A stretch of 64,000 nt of DNA from an uncultured Planctomycetaceae bacterium (lineage in GTDB: Bacteria; Planctomycetota; Phycisphaerae; SM23-33), in assembly GCA_964417755.1 (NCBI GenBank), contig CAYQJH010000002.1, forward strand, positions 2,693-66,692. Direction: 5' to 3'. Made by a program: the position numbers and the translations under genes. The notes under the pieces are model-generated. The model had not been told where the DNA came from. It saw nothing but the letters and a program-made list of their open reading frames with translations, and ran no database searches. Below, piece by piece: positions 22,149 through 63,975 of the stretch (within the stretch, counting starts at the first letter, position 1; each line of letters starts with the position of its first letter).

Positions 22149-22177
22149 TTGCCGCGGGGCGGCTGGGCGAGTATAAA
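22149..22177 (+). promoter_or_regulatory. Sigma-70-like promoter of the SRP RNA gene
   Basis: TTGCCG (22149-22154), 17-nt spacer, TATAAA (22172-22177). The RNA 5' end is about 6 nt downstream. Confidence 0.5.
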
Positions 22178-22183
22178 GACTAT

Positions 22184-22469
22184 GCCGTGCTAAGCGGGGC
22201 GCTAGCGGTGCCCTGACGGCCGAAAGGCCTGACCCGCAATCCGCTACAGCGGGGCTGAACGGTCCGCCGAGGGCCGCTGTTTGCAGGTTCCCTCGTCATG
22301 CGGGCGGTGTTGAAGGTTGGGTCCTCTGCAACGTTACGCCGTGAACCTGGTCAGGTCCGGAAGGAAGCAGCCATAAGCGACTTGTAACGTGTGCCGGAGG
22401 GTCACCTGGCTGGAGCCGTCTTCATGGCGATCCCTGTGAGCACGCGATTCGAAGCGGATCTGCACGGCT
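22184..22469 (+). ncRNA. ffs: Signal recognition particle RNA, long (Alu-domain, Bacillus-type) form
   Basis: Universal helix-8 sequence CCTGGTCAGGTCCGGAAGGAAGCAGCCATAAG at about 22345-22378. A 5' GCCGTGCTAAGCGGGG...GGTGCCCTG...CAATCCGCTACAGC Alu-like region. The 3' CGATTCGAAGCGGATCTGCACGGC pairs with the 5' GCCGTGC. A U-rich tract follows. Confidence 0.75.
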
Positions 22470-24439: not shown

Positions 24440-24902
24440 CGCGGACGCTCCGTCTGGCCGACTCGAAGCAATCAGCCGGGAAAGATTATCGCATAGATCG
24501 CGTTCTGAGGCAAGAAACAAAGGCCCAAAACGACAGGAAGTCGTGGCTGCACATGTCCGCTTGGAGCAGTCGGCAGGGCGTTTGGGGGCAAATACGCCTG
24601 AGCCGGTCGCAAGACATTTTGCCCAGTGCAACTGAAATCGGAATTCCTTGATTCGCCGTTCCCCATGTCACGAAGCGCTAGTCCAGTACACAAAGCAACT
24701 TGTGCAGGTTCATCCTCAGCGAACCAGGCCGGTTTGCGGACGGAAACCCCCAAGCGGCAATCCTCTGCGCAATTCAACACCCTGCCCATGGCGTCCGATA
24801 GAAGGGAAAGCCCCTCGTGCCGCGCTGCGGCTGAGGCGCTTTGATGGTGCCTTTTTGTAACGTAAGTTTCAAGATGAGCCGCAAAATCAGTGGAGCTTTC
24901 GC

Positions 24903-33862: not shown

Positions 33863-34034
33863 GCAGTACTTTGGAGTGCGGCGGCATAGACGCCGCTTTT
33901 GCCTCAAGTGCCGCTGGGCTTAACCTTCTGCCGTCCCACGTCAGTCAAAGCGGTGCCGCCGCCCTTCGGGCTCTGTCACCGCACTCCAAGGCCCATGATT
34001 GCTTCATCCAAGCCCAGGCGGTAGAATTTCCGCC

Positions 34035-35510
34035 ATGCATCAGCTTCTGCAAAAACTGAATGCGTTCCAGCCGGTACGCGTTGCCTTGGTGGGCGACTTC
34101 ATCCTCGACCGCTATGTCTATGGCGACGTCGAGCGGATCAACCAGGAGGCGCCCGTGCCGGTTCTGCAGATCGTCCGCAGCGCCAGCAGTGTTGGTGGGG
34201 CGGGCAACGTGGCGGCGGCTGTGCCGGCCCTTGACTCGAAGGTCTCCTGCCTGGGCGTCATCGGCTATGACGCCGGCGGAGAGGAACTTAGGCAATTGCT
34301 TGTTGCCGCCGGCGCTGATACGTCGTCGCTGCTGGCCCTGAGAGATCGGCCCACGTCGATCAAGACGCGGTTCGTCGGCCTGGCGCAGCATCGCCATCCG
34401 CAGCAGATGCTCCGCGTGGATCACGAGAATTCGCACGTGCTGGATGCCGCGACGCAGACGCAGCTGCGGCTGGCCTTCGGAAACCTGCTGGCCGGCAGCG
34501 ATATCGTCGTTTTGGAAGACTACAACAAGGGCGTCCTGAGCGACGCCAACACGCCGCACCTGATCGCCGACGCGACGGCCGCCGGCAAGAAGGTCATGGT
34601 CGATCCCGCCTTGGTGAGTGACTACTCGCGATATCGCGGCTGCACGGTTATCAAGCCCAACCGCTACGAGGCTGCCCTGGCCAGCGGAATCAAGATCACG
34701 GATGATGCCTCGCTGGAGGCCGCCGCCCGCAGGATTATCAATATCACAGCCTGCCAGGCCGTCGTCATCTCGCTCGACAAGGAAGGCATGTACCTCTGCA
34801 TCGCCGATGGCAAGGCTGCCCGCATTCCGCATCGCCGGCCTCGCAATGTTTACGATGTAACCGGCGCGGGCGATGAGACGCTTGCGGTGCTGGCGGTGGC
34901 GCTGGCGCAAGGCTGCGATTACCAGCAGGCGGTGGAGTTGTCCAACGTGGCCGGCGGGCTGGAGGTCGAGCGATTCGGCTTTGTGCCTGTTACACGCGCG
35001 GAGATGGCGGCGGAGATAGAAATAATGGTGGGCCTGCGAAGCGCCAAGGTGGTGGATCGCTTCACGCTGGCGCAGGAGCTGCGCCGCAGGCGCGGGCAGG
35101 GGCAGGCGATTGTCTTCACCAACGGCTGTTTCGATCTCTTGCACATGGGGCACGTTCGATATCTCAAGCAGGCACGCGAAATGGGCGACTGCCTCGTGGT
35201 TGCGATCAACTCCGACGCCAGTGTCAGCCGGCTGAAGGGTCCTTCGCGCCCGGTGATATCGCAGCAGGAGCGGGCGGAGATGCTCGGCTCGCTGGAATGC
35301 GTGGATTATGTAACCGTCTTCGACGAGGACACGCCGATTCCACTGCTGGAGATGTTCCGCCCGGACGTGCTGGCCAAGGGCGGCACCACGCCGGTTGTTG
35401 TCGGCAGGGAAATGGTGGAAGCTTACGGCGGCAAGGTGATGACGCTGGACAAGGTTGATGGCCTGAGCACCACGCAGATCATCGAGCGGATAGCTGGCGG
35501 CGGGCAATGA
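34035..35510 (+). CDS. hldE: Bifunctional D-beta-D-heptose 7-phosphate kinase / heptose 1-phosphate adenylyltransferase
   Basis: N-terminal PfkB-type kinase domain. C-terminal cytidylyltransferase motif [13 protein letters not shown]. Confidence 0.85.
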
Positions 35511-35561
35511 TGAACGACAGAATCCGAATGCCGAATCAATGACGAAATCAGAATGACGAAT

Positions 35562-36140
35562 ATGGCAACCAAGGCTGTGTTTGTCGACCGCGATCACACG
35601 TTGATCGACGACCCGGGCTATCTCGATAACCCGGACCTGGTGAAACTGCTTCCGGGCGTCGGCGGCGCACTGAAGGCCTTGTCGACAGCTGGGTACAAGA
35701 TCGTAATGGTTACAAACCAGTCCGGCATCGCCAGGGGGCTTCTCACCGAGCAGACGCTGGCGAAGATTCACGAGGAGCTTGGGCGGCAACTGGCTGAGCA
35801 TGGCGCCAGCCTGGACGCCATATATTATTGTCCGTTCCACCCGGAAGGCTCGATCCCGCGATACGCGATGGAGTCGGATCTCCGCAAGCCCAAACCTGGA
35901 ATGCTGTTGCAGGCAGCCAAGGATATGGCCATTGATCTGCCCGCAAGCTGGATGGTTGGCGACGGCGCCCGCGACATCGAGGCGGGCCAGCGGGCCGGCT
36001 GCAGGACTATTCGCCTGCGCCATCCCCAGGCGGACGCGGACTTGCGATGCGAAGATGAGGATGTTCAGGCCGATTTTACCGTTAGGAATCTGGCTGAGGC
36101 GGCCAAGATCATCCTTCGCGAAGACGTGGGACTTCATTAA
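35562..36140 (+). CDS. gmhB: D,D-heptose 1,7-bisphosphate phosphatase (HAD family)
   Basis: FVDRDHTL (DxDxT HAD motif I) and GmhB-like length. Confidence 0.8.
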   Translation: MATKAVFVDRDHTLIDDPGYLDNPDLVKLLPGVGGALKALSTAGYKIVMVTNQSGIARGLLTEQTLAKIHEELGRQLAEHGASLDAIYYCPFHPEGSIPRYAMESDLRKPKPGMLLQAAKDMAIDLPASWMVGDGARDIEAGQRAGCRTIRLRHPQADADLRCEDEDVQADFTVRNLAEAAKIILREDVGLH

Positions 36141-36199
36141 ATTTGCGGTTTATTTGAAATAGGTCTTGCTTTCATGACCGTTGCGGGCATAATCGTATC

Positions 36200-36367
36200 C
36201 GAATCCACCACTTGCCTATTTGCCGATCAAGCTTGTGCGTGTCTCCCGCACTTGCTTGGCCGTCAAGGTCGCCTCGGCGAGGGGGATCGCAGGTATTATT
36301 CTTCATCCTACGTCTGAAGCGGCAAACGTGGTGGCGCGGCGGGCCAAACCCGCCGCGAGTTTTTTAT
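36200..36367 (+). ncRNA. Candidate small RNA with its own promoter and intrinsic terminator
   Basis: TTGCTT (36166-36171), 16/17-nt spacer, CATAAT (36188-36193). A closing stem between 36206-36217 and 36321-36334. No ORF. Terminator at 36335-36367. Confidence 0.4.
36335..36367 (+). terminator. Rho-independent terminator
   Basis: CGCGGCGGG-CCAAA-CCCGCCGCG followed by AGTTTTTTAT. Confidence 0.7.
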
Positions 36368-36476
36368 GAGCCCGGGGCTGAGGAACCACCTGCCGGAGAG
36401 ACACATGCCGCACAGCCAAAGCGAGATCCTTTTCGTATAATGCCAAGGCGTTGCTACTACCTCCAAGGAGCCTGCC

Positions 36477-37658
36477 ATGAGAACGATCATGTTCGCATTC
36501 GTCCTGTGCGTGTCGCTGATTTACCAAGGAACACCTTGCTATTCGCAAAGCGCCACGACGGCTGCCTCCACCGGCGCGGCTGCCGCGGCGGCGATTGACG
36601 CTGCCCATCGCGATGCCGCGCGGAAGATGATCGACGGCGGCATTGCTTATCTGCTGTCCAAGCGCGATGCCGACGGCGGCTGGAGCGTCGGGCCAAACAA
36701 CGCATTCAAGCCCGCAGCCACCGCCCTGGCCCTGAAGGCCTTGCTGGGCGAGCAGAAATACTCGGCCCAGAGCCCGGAGGTCAAGCAGGCGCTGGGCGTC
36801 CTGCTGGGCTTCCGTCAGAAGGACGGCGGCATATATGGCAAGGACGGCCAGTCGGCCTACACTACCGCGGTAGCCGTCATGGCCCTGAAGGCGGCCAACG
36901 ATCCGCAATATAATGATGTCATTCGCGAGGCGGTGACCTACCTCAAAGGCCTGCAGGTTCTGCCCGGGCAGGAGTCGCCCGATGCCAAGCCGGTGGCCGT
37001 CGATGACCCGCGAGTTGGCGGGGTTGGCTATGGCAAGCCGCCCGCCTATCAGCCTAACCTCAGCGTGCTGGGGTTTGTAATGGAAGGCTGGGAGTCTGCC
37101 GGAGTGGCTGCGGATGACCCAGCCGTTCAGAAGGCAGCCGAGTTTCTGACCCGCCTGCAGAATCGCAGTGAGTCCAATCCTCAGGCGGTGGCAGCCAAGG
37201 GCAGCAATGACGGCGGATTCTACTATGCATTAGATGAATCCAAGGCCGGCAGTGAAGACGGCGGCCTGCGTAGTTACGGCAGCATGACATACGTTGGCTT
37301 CAAGAGCATGCTGTACGCCGGGCTGAGCAAGGACGACCCGCGCGTGCAGGCGGCCTACAGTTGGATCCGCCGGTACTGGGGCCTGGACAGCAACCCCAAC
37401 ATGCCCGACAAGCAGTCGCAGCAGGGGCTGTTCTATTATTACCAGGTCCTTGCCAAGGCGCTGCGGGCCTATGGCCAGCCGATCATCAAGGACGCAAAGA
37501 ACCAGGAGCACAACTGGCGGCAGGAACTTATCGATGCCCTGGCCAAGCGCGTGCAGCCTGACGGCTCGTGGAAGAACGACGCCGACCGATGGGAGGAAGG
37601 CAGCCCCATCCTGGTTACAGTCTACTGCGTGACGGCGTTGCAGGAGGCGATGAAGTAA
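36477..37658 (+). CDS. Secreted prenyltransferase/squalene-oxidase-repeat protein
   Basis: Signal peptide and recurring DGGW / QxxDGGxxxxG repeats of the terpenoid-cyclase alpha-alpha toroid fold. Confidence 0.65.
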   Translation: MRTIMFAFVLCVSLIYQGTPCYSQSATTAASTGAAAAAAIDAAHRDAARKMIDGGIAYLLSKRDADGGWSVGPNNAFKPAATALALKALLGEQKYSAQSPEVKQALGVLLGFRQKDGGIYGKDGQSAYTTAVAVMALKAANDPQYNDVIREAVTYLKGLQVLPGQESPDAKPVAVDDPRVGGVGYGKPPAYQPNLSVLGFVMEGWESAGVAADDPAVQKAAEFLTRLQNRSESNPQAVAAKGSNDGGFYYALDESKAGSEDGGLRSYGSMTYVGFKSMLYAGLSKDDPRVQAAYSWIRRYWGLDSNPNMPDKQSQQGLFYYYQVLAKALRAYGQPIIKDAKNQEHNWRQELIDALAKRVQPDGSWKNDADRWEEGSPILVTVYCVTALQEAMK

Positions 37659-37761: not shown

Positions 37762-38493
37762 TCAGGCCAGGCGGCAGCCGGCAGCCTCGAAGGCCTCCTT
37801 CGCCAGGCGTACATGCTCATCAGTAGCGCCGTCTTTGACCATCGCCGACATGAACCGCCGCAGGCTCTTTGCCTGTTTGACTTGCCGATTGAACCTGGGG
37901 CGATGCAGGCGCTCAAGGTCGATCAACGCCACGCCCGCACCCTTGCCGTTCTGCCCAAAGACGTGTCTTGGCAGCAGGTCAGGCCAGCACCAGCCGGCCT
38001 GAAACACCTTCACCATCGCGCCGGCCAGCTTCCGCAGCACATCCTTTATTAACGGCTGTTGAGCATCGGCAAGAAGCTCATTCAGAGGCGTTCCCTCTAC
38101 CGGCAGGGCCACCATTACGCCCTGCGTGGGCAGATTCAGAAAATGTCGCTGGCCGAAGGCAATGACCTCCGCAACGCCAATGCCGAAGCCGGCCACAACC
38201 TGCATGGCTGCATGTTCCTTGTGGATCATCGAACATGGCCGCCGGCCGGCAAGCATGTCACGAAGCATCTCGGTCCGCTCGGTGGCCAGGGCCTTCTTGA
38301 CGAAGACCATCTGGCCGCACGGCAGGACCGTGCTGCGCGTTTCACTTCTGCCGGCGTGCCAACTGAGGCATTGGCCGCCATCGAATCGCATCAGGTCTTC
38401 GAACGAGGCCAGGCCCGAAGCATTCAGACGCTGGCCCCAGCCCTCGGCTATCTCCAGGTGCAGGTTACTTTCAGTTTTCAAATCGCTCACCAC
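37762..38493 (-). CDS. Lipopolysaccharide kinase (Kdo/WaaP/InaA-like) family protein, divergent
   Basis: Protein-kinase-like fold remnants (ALIDLERLH, DLLPRHVF). Small size and motif spacing resemble Kdo/WaaP kinases. The assignment is tentative. Confidence 0.45.
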   Translation of the reverse strand: MVSDLKTESNLHLEIAEGWGQRLNASGLASFEDLMRFDGGQCLSWHAGRSETRSTVLPCGQMVFVKKALATERTEMLRDMLAGRRPCSMIHKEHAAMQVVAGFGIGVAEVIAFGQRHFLNLPTQGVMVALPVEGTPLNELLADAQQPLIKDVLRKLAGAMVKVFQAGWCWPDLLPRHVFGQNGKGAGVALIDLERLHRPRFNRQVKQAKSLRRFMSAMVKDGATDEHVRLAKEAFEAAGCRLA

Positions 38494-63290: not shown

Positions 63291-63893
63291 CTACCCCAGC
63301 TTCTTCAGCACGCGATCTATGGCCTCGAATTCGCGCTTCATTTCAGCCAGCTGGCGTCGATGGTCCTGGACGATGCTTTGCGAGGCCTGTGCGAGGAAGT
63401 CCTCGTCAGTCAATCGCTCGGAGATTTCGGCGATGGCCTCGGCCAGCATCTCCATTCGCCGCCGGAGAAGTTCGATGCGGTCTTCCTTGGTGGAGGCCTC
63501 GTTCAGTACGCTGTCCAGCACATGATTGCTGACGAAGATCGGCGTGTCGAAGGCCACGCCGAGGGCGATGGCGTCGCTGGGCCGGCTGTCGACGTGGAAG
63601 ACCTCCTCGCCGCGGCGAATGTAGAGAGTGGCGATGAAAGTATGGTCGCGAATGTCGTTGATGAGGATCTTGATCAGCTTGCCGCCAAGGGTGGAAATGA
63701 CGTTGGCCAGCAGGTCGTGCGTCATCGGCCGGGGCGTGGGCTTGCCCTTGAGGCGGCGGTCTATGGCGATGGCCTCGCTGATGCCGATCATGATGGGGAA
63801 CGTCCGCTCGCCGTTCTTTTCGCGCAGGAAGATCACCTGCTGGTCGCCCAGCTCGGTAATCAGGATGCGAGATAATTCCATCGGCACATCCAT
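63291..63893 (-). CDS. Bifunctional nuclease (BFN/DUF151) family protein
   Basis: Conserved RPSDAIALG motif and N-terminal domain FPIMIGISEAIAIDRRLKG typical of DUF151. Confidence 0.7.
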   Translation of the reverse strand: MDVPMELSRILITELGDQQVIFLREKNGERTFPIMIGISEAIAIDRRLKGKPTPRPMTHDLLANVISTLGGKLIKILINDIRDHTFIATLYIRRGEEVFHVDSRPSDAIALGVAFDTPIFVSNHVLDSVLNEASTKEDRIELLRRRMEMLAEAIAEISERLTDEDFLAQASQSIVQDHRRQLAEMKREFEAIDRVLKKLG

Positions 63894-63928
63894 TACACGC
63901 CTCGATCCTTCCTGAGTCATTCTAGCGT

Positions 63929-63975
63929 GGCACGGACATCCTGTCCGTGCGTCTCATGGGCGTCTCGCCCATGTT
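63929..63975. repeat. A-family hairpin pair
   Basis: GGCACGGACATCCTGTCCGTGC + GTCTCATGGGCGTCTCGCCCATG. Confidence 0.6.

Follow-up and report, generated by a model that had tools for sequence, protein, structure and literature searches.

A candidate small non-coding RNA gene between gmhB and a prenyltransferase-repeat gene in an uncultured member of the Phycisphaerae

Background

Small RNAs (sRNAs) of the 3′-UTR type that possess a promoter of their own share the terminator of the mRNA encoded upstream; examples are DapZ and MicL from enterobacteria. To our knowledge, no regulatory sRNA has been characterized in the Planctomycetota, and a non-exhaustive search of the full-text literature found no characterized regulatory RNA from this phylum. 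Here we analyze a 64-kb stretch of DNA (hereinafter the window) from an uncultured member of the Phycisphaerae (Planctomycetota), in which the best named protein matches of the genes flanking the segment of interest come from MAGs of Phycisphaerae. A preliminary description of this DNA had singled out a segment between the heptose gene gmhB and a gene for a secreted protein with prenyltransferase repeats (hereinafter pt) as either an independent sRNA, 6S-like or other, or a cis-regulatory leader. The observations presented below favor the first of these readings, and positions 36166-36365 are probably an independent small non-coding RNA gene that resembles the 3′-UTR-type sRNAs in several respects and differs from them in others.

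Locus and gene context

The features of the locus are collected in Table 1. The spacer between hldE and gmhB, together with the start of gmhB (35511-35565), consists of GAATGNCGAAT-like repeats (CCGAATGCCGAATCAATGACGAAATCAGAATGACGAATATGG), and the gmhB start codon is ambiguous (ATG 35553 or ATG 35562); database entries have the 192-aa form. In most of the Phycisphaerae relatives (L004, L010, L011, L013, L015, L017 and L018), gmhB encodes a protein of 310-375 aa, in which the HAD phosphatase is followed by a Pro/Glu/Ala-rich linker and a conserved C-terminal module of about 80 aa with two hydrophobic helices and the motif ..VRREILRHLRQ..EEFSLSKLFAG..LLQLMALTFF... The enzyme-only form of about 190 aa is found in the lineage of the window and in a few relatives (L084, L085, L087 and L125-L128). 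A membrane-anchored heptose-bisphosphate phosphatase, as the long form appears to be, seems unusual. The idea that the intergenic region is a decayed remnant of the C-terminal extension of gmhB was considered and rejected, as a tblastn search yielded no match.

Table 1. Features of the hldE-gmhB-pt locus and of the SRP RNA gene in the window, with the differences between the window and the diverged relative L083
Feature	Position	Strand	Differences from L083	Remarks
Large-type bacterial SRP RNA	22149-22467 including promoter; Rfam match 22185-22467			RF01854, 157 bits; U-rich 3′ end
hldE	33999-35510	+		PfkB kinase + cytidylyltransferase
gmhB	35553-36140	+		HAD phosphatase
gmhB-pt intergenic region	36141-36476			336 nt
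AT-rich stretch, possible UP-like element	36141-36165	+	3/25	Directly 3′ of gmhB stop, upstream of -35
Candidate -35 hexamer TTGCTT	36166-36171	+	0/6 (0/12 for both hexamers)	Invariant in all 7 sequences
Promoter spacer	36172-36187	+	6/16 (37.5%)	16 nt
Candidate -10 hexamer CATAAT	36188-36193	+	0/6	Invariant in all 7 sequences
Start-site region	36194-36204		3/11	Neutral rate
RNA body	36205-36334		9/130 (6.9%) and two small indels	p = 6.6e-6 vs 4-fold sites
P1, 5′ strand CCACCAC-UUGCC	36205-36216	+		Pairs with 36321-36334; invariant
Hairpin domain H2 (predicted)	36217-36265	+		Inner GUGCG/CGCAC 36235-36239/36247-36251; outer CAAGC/GCUUG 36228-36232/36254-36258
Invariant 27-nt block CCGUCAAGGUCGCCUCGGCGAGGGGGA	36260-36286	+		No change in any covering sequence
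Invariant AU-/pyrimidine-rich block GCAGGUAUUAUUCUUCAUCCUA	36289-36310	+		Candidate single-stranded seed
Possible small hairpin H4, CUUCA-UCCUACGUC-UGAAG	36301-36319	+		Low confidence
P1, 3′ strand GGCAA-[AC]-GUGGUGG	36321-36334	+		
Intrinsic terminator	36335-36365	+	0/31	CGCGGCGGG-CCAAA-CCCGCCGCG (36335-36357), then AG, T6 at 36360-36365; p = 4e-4 vs 4-fold sites
Post-terminator spacer	36366-36416		11/51 (21.6%) and 2 indels	51 nt
pt promoter and 5′ UTR	36417-36476		2/59	Separate conserved block
pt	36477-37658	+		Secreted prenyltransferase/squalene-cyclase-repeat protein
Kdo/WaaP-like kinase gene	37762-38493	-		

Conservation footprint

The window was compared with L083, the sole diverged relative in which the locus is retained (94% amino acid identity in gmhB). 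The neutral reference was provided by the 4-fold degenerate sites in gmhB and pt; of these 281 sites, 70 (24.9%) differ. The resulting pattern supports selection on both promoter hexamers, on the stretch 36205-36334 and on the terminator, with neutral drift in the promoter spacer, the start-site region and the 51 nt that follow the terminator (Table 1). The conserved block sets in exactly where the closing stem does and runs on to the final U of the terminator, and this footprint is, at the level of sequence, the decisive evidence for a small transcription unit. It supports the proposal that the segment is an independent sRNA unit with a promoter and an intrinsic terminator, followed by a separate promoter for the gene downstream. 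The TATAAT of that downstream promoter is present as described, albeit at 36436-36441, one base off the initially reported 36437-36442.

The segment had also been described as free of open reading frames. This is not strictly the case, given that mechanically called ORFs of 44-128 aa cross it in the window, but none of these survives in L083, where an insertion of 2 nt after 36286, along with an insertion of 1 nt after 36325, breaks the frame of every crossing ORF of at least 44 aa. There is no ATG within 36200-36365, and, because all the crossing frames are broken as well, the conserved product is not a protein.

Promoter and terminator

The candidate promoter consists of TTGCTT and CATAAT separated by 16 nt. 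All three elements are present as reported, but the designation “near-consensus” was an overstatement: the match to the sigma-70 consensus amounts to 8 of 12 positions (3 of 6 in the -35 hexamer), and a sigma-70 promoter scan with a threshold of 9 of 12 does not list this site. As judged from the sequence, promoters of the TTGC type look genuine for this organism because the SRP RNA gene in the same window, which was used as an internal reference, is preceded by one (TTGCCG-17-TATAAA), and because the pattern TTGC-N19-20-ATAAT is enriched, with 4 occurrences in the window vs 0.28 expected and none of 100 shuffles reaching 4. At least one other occurrence (24485-24513, minus strand) precedes a start codon with a GGAG Shine-Dalgarno motif. 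The SRP RNA starts 7 nt after its -10 hexamer; by analogy, the start site of the candidate RNA is predicted around 36200-36202.

The claim of a strong intrinsic terminator was borne out. The hairpin, with a stem of 9 G-C pairs, a 5-nt loop and a predicted energy of -19.3 kcal/mol, is the stronger of only two canonical terminators (GC-rich hairpin plus T-run) that were detected on both strands of the 64 kb. The second, weaker one (63955-63973, plus strand; CATGGGCG-TCT-CGCCCATG followed by TTTCTTTT) lies near the end of the window, just beyond the start of the minus-strand ORF 63291-63920. The terminator hairpin is generic, and it alone was matched in plasmid and phage collections, namely, in two Novosphingobium plasmids. 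A terminator scan detected no other terminator-like site from the gmhB stop codon (36140) to 36335, so that the same terminator would also end the hldE-gmhB transcripts.

Given that the operon transcripts must cross the segment, it might be only a structured 3′ UTR of hldE-gmhB with its terminator, in which case the promoter-like hexamers would be unused and the conservation would reflect mRNA stability or termination. The high conservation between close relatives could indeed result from such a cis role in the gmhB 3′ UTR, and the weakness of the -35 hexamer is also compatible with this interpretation. However, the hexamers are conserved at 12 of 12 positions while the spacer and the start-site region drift at 27-37%, and the chance of such conservation at the neutral rate is about 3% (0.75^12). 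Further, the conserved block begins not at the stop codon but about 65 nt past it, at 36205, where a transcript from the candidate promoter would begin; 93% identity over 130 nt, against 25% divergence at silent sites, is seldom seen in a plain 3′ UTR; and the SRP RNA gene is preceded by a promoter of the same type. With these observations taken together, a mere 3′ UTR appears unlikely, and an sRNA gene with its own promoter is the preferred interpretation.

Predicted structure of the RNA

The ends of the RNA body are predicted to pair in a closing stem, P1, in which CCACCAC (36205-36211) pairs with GUGGUGG (36328-36334) and UUGCC (36212-36216) with GGCAA (36321-36325), i.e., 7+5 bp with a 2-nt bulge (A36326 and C36327) between the two halves. 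In the three folded variants (the window, L081 and L083), the pair probability is 0.96-0.99 for the outer 7 bp and 0.51-0.81 for the inner 5 bp, and that of the terminator is 1.0. L083 keeps all 24 paired bases of P1 and differs in this region only within the bulge, by one inserted G (after 36325) and the substitution 36327 C>U. The closing stem noted originally is thus present, but on its own it does not exceed chance expectation: when the 135-nt body was shuffled 500 times with its dinucleotide content preserved, 42 of the shuffled sequences gave at least 12 end-to-end pairs. The folding energy gives z = -3.2 with the terminator and a marginal z = -1.9 without it.

The RNA body is predicted to be structured, although the fold of its interior (36217-36320, about 105 nt) is ambiguous, with multi-branch predictions that disagree between the two lineages. 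In the hairpin domain H2, the inner stem has a probability of 1.0 in the window, whereas L083 has an extended 9-bp helix (probability 0.97), and the L083 substitutions at 36223, 36226 and 36227 either form new pairs with the invariant strand 36259-36263 or preserve existing ones; conversely, 36237 G>A and the hypervariable position 36256 (T/C/A) break predicted H2 pairs. The predicted pairing of the invariant 27-nt block differs between the lineages. Much of the second invariant block is predicted to be unpaired in L081 (36295-36299 and the H4 loop), and the picture is less clear in the window and in L083; an 18-mer from this block is unique within the window. H4 is predicted with a probability of 0.37-0.83 in the lineage of the window but not in L083; the sole substitution in this hairpin, 36311 C>U, affects the loop and not the stem. 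RNAalifold classifies 0 of 49 predicted pairs as compensatory, in an alignment of 3 distinct sequences from two lineages only.

This architecture, an aptamer-like closing stem with a terminator right after it, located immediately upstream of pt and in the same orientation, also resembles that of a transcription-attenuating leader of pt, either riboswitch-like or controlled by a protein, such that transcripts from the candidate promoter would either terminate at 36365 or continue into pt. An alternative fold of the nascent transcript that is nearly isoenergetic in the window (-52.5 vs -51.9 kcal/mol) fits this scheme, as in it 36214-36217 and 36222-36225 pair with the 5′ arm of the terminator. 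However, the substitution 36223 C>G disrupts this antiterminator pairing in L083, and the 51-nt linker between the terminator and the pt region evolves neutrally and contains two indels, whereas pt has a conserved -10 hexamer and 5′ UTR of its own. The terminator, with its 9-bp all-G-C stem, looks constitutive; relatives with the gmhB-pt gene order keep a -10-like motif (TAnAAT, 35-45 nt before the pt start) in the absence of any such leader; Rfam contains no riboswitch or leader that matches even at E ≤ 10; and the element is limited to one narrow lineage, unlike ligand-sensing aptamers. The cis-regulatory leader that had been entertained from the outset is accordingly disfavored, and we consider it distinctly improbable; the sRNA reading, with pt served by its own promoter, accommodates these observations better.

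Distribution among relatives

Only two lineages were found to possess this locus when relatives were sought by protein searches and contig look-ups. One of these is the window-type group (L081, L120, L121, L123 and, in part, L122), with 97-98% identity over the region; the other is the diverged group, which consists of L083 and the partial L124, with protein identity of 94% for gmhB and 93% for pt. In more distant Phycisphaerae, gmhB is at most 77% and pt at most 72% identical (at most 61% for pt where the DNA was examined). Some of these distant relatives keep the order hldE-gmhB-pt, with a 100-180-aa C-terminal extension of gmhB and a short remaining spacer, whereas in others gmhB is followed by a two-component system (L085 and L125) or by a glucosamine-6-phosphate-isomerase-like gene (L087); the contigs of some distant relatives are too short to tell what follows gmhB.

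Searches for homologs of the element itself yielded none outside these two lineages. Blastn and nhmmer searches of the intergenic region against 82 loci matched the near-identical L081 alone, and a covariance model, R1, built from three variants, detected neither a homolog nor a paralog in 85 related loci or elsewhere in the window. A metagenome scan with the invariant 18-mer GGTATTATTCTTCATCCT gave 32 matches, all of them attributable to chance and lacking flanking similarity. The relatives with a short gmhB (L084, L085 and L125-L128) have different content downstream of this gene and no similar element. Hence the expectation that the closing stem is conserved in relatives holds for L083, where its paired bases are intact, but not for more distant relatives, from which the element is absent. 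The RNA gene matches no known family and is confined to very close relatives; it is probably genuine but an orphan.

Several of these relatives contain other features in the corresponding region. L087 (74% identity in gmhB) was examined for a homolog of the RNA and rejected, as the alignment score was reached by 126 of 300 shuffles and the transcribed part could not be aligned. The motif AATAG-NN-CTTGCTT recurs downstream of gmhB in L087, without statistical significance. In the same region (L087 4607-4846, 3′ of the short gmhB), AATAGCCCTTGCTT-17-TACAAT has the same -35 context as the window; about 110 nt separate this promoter-like site from a T10 run, which immediately precedes the glucosamine-6-phosphate-isomerase-like gene. 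In L085 (4667-7772; 76% identity in gmhB), genes for a sensor kinase (HisKA) and for a response regulator of the sigma-54-activator type are inserted between gmhB and pt, and the spacer before pt contains TGCACA palindromes and TGGCACGGCATTTGA, a -24/-12-like motif, which suggests sigma-54 control of pt in this relative. A 73%-identical relative, represented by L127 (980-1066) and L128 (916-1002), has an inverted repeat (CGAGCCGTCTCTCGGCTTCGCTCGGGATGGT...ACCATCCCGAGCGAAGCCGAGAGACGGCTCG) some 110 nt 3′ of gmhB; its arms, about 36 bp each, match perfectly and enclose about 15 nt.

The absence of the element at this position in more distant relatives, along with the 12-14-bp inverted repeats that flank a 130-bp segment, could point to a DNA element instead of an RNA, i.e., a miniature inverted-repeat transposable element or a protein-binding regulatory region, or else to a stretch without a function. 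Yet searches of the 64-kb window and of the 85 related loci revealed no further copy; the flanks, GAAT and CGCG, do not form a target-site duplication; conservation is not confined to the repeat-flanked segment but includes the adjoining terminator and the promoter hexamers; and conservation far above the neutral level argues against a non-functional sequence. This explanation is very improbable, and an independent RNA gene remains the best explanation.

Proposed function and significance

Under the preferred scenario, transcription would start from the sigma-70-type promoter TTGCTT-16-CATAAT near 36200-36202 and stop at the U-run 36360-36365, and the transcript would be about 165 nt long. Its two ends would pair in the 12-bp P1 stem, which abuts the terminator hairpin and would protect both ends, and the interior of about 105 nt (36217-36320) would carry the functional, strongly conserved sequences. 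Because the terminator is shared with the upstream operon, the 3′ end of the hldE-gmhB mRNA may be a second source of the RNA, whereas pt would be transcribed from its own promoter (TATAAT, 36436-36441). We infer that the RNA acts in trans; its most likely activity would be base-pairing, via 36289-36310, with purine-rich target sites, with protein binding as the second choice. A target search within the window with RNAduplex, using both the whole sRNA and the putative seed, revealed nothing above background, and the start region of gmhB was unremarkable.

Several features generally expected of an sRNA gene are present here: a promoter of its own, at the sequence level, an intrinsic terminator, no conserved reading frame, and above-neutral conservation the boundaries of which match these signals. 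On the opposite side are the closing stem that is found in 8% of the shuffles, the z-score of -1.9, the 3 of 6 matches in the -35 hexamer and the lack of a homolog in the 85 loci.

A more specific and quite speculative proposal, to which we assign a low probability, is that the RNA represents a new, structured and lineage-specific regulator linked to the surrounding envelope gene cluster (hldE-gmhB for heptose synthesis, the secreted prenyltransferase-repeat protein and the Kdo/WaaP-like kinase). If so, it could be, e.g., a protein-binding or ligand-sensing RNA that originates from the 3′ end of the heptose operon and modulates functions of the LPS core or the outer membrane in the Planctomycetota. 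As one orphan candidate with a very narrow distribution in an uncultured lineage, the RNA is of modest general significance; all the same, such a cleanly delimited candidate would offer a convenient entry point for testing riboregulation in the Planctomycetota.

Comparison with known RNA systems

Rfam searches, which had been proposed as a check on the candidate, covered the whole window at the gathering score and, at E ≤ 10, segments of 501 nt and 183 nt around the candidate, and identified no family for it, with 6S RNA, riboswitches, leaders and ribozymes all included; there was no match in L083, L085 and L087 either. The spurious matches that were dismissed are SCARNA20, sR32, STnc310 (via the terminator), mir-8521 and SOX2OT.

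Like 6S RNA (RF00013), the candidate is about 165 nt long, its ends are paired in a closing stem, and it appears to be a stand-alone gene with a promoter and a terminator. The 6S-like alternative raised at first is not supported, however: no match to the 6S model was obtained, either at the gathering score on the whole window or on 183 nt at E ≤ 10; a multi-branch fold, and not a rod with a central bubble and a terminal stem, is predicted for the interior of about 105 nt; and the candidate is restricted to one narrow lineage whereas 6S RNA is near-universal.

The similarity to terminating riboswitches and leaders lies in the closing stem that encloses a conserved, predicted multi-helix domain, with a terminator at once after it and a gene on the same strand downstream. 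Unlike these elements, the candidate has no conserved antiterminator, is separated from pt by a neutral spacer and a separate promoter, matches no known class and is absent from relatives that keep pt.

The closest resemblance is to the 3′-UTR-type sRNAs. In contrast to DapZ and MicL, the promoter of the candidate lies after the stop codon and not inside the coding sequence, its 5′ end is predicted to be tied up in a long stem formed with the 3′ end instead of offering a free 5′ seed, and it has no sequence or Rfam relationship to these RNAs; the comparison is therefore meant as an analogy and not as an assignment to this class. What the candidate appears to share with them is the location directly downstream of gmhB on the same strand, with promoter hexamers of its own, the use of the only terminator available to the upstream operon, and a short, non-coding product that includes a conserved, possibly single-stranded stretch.
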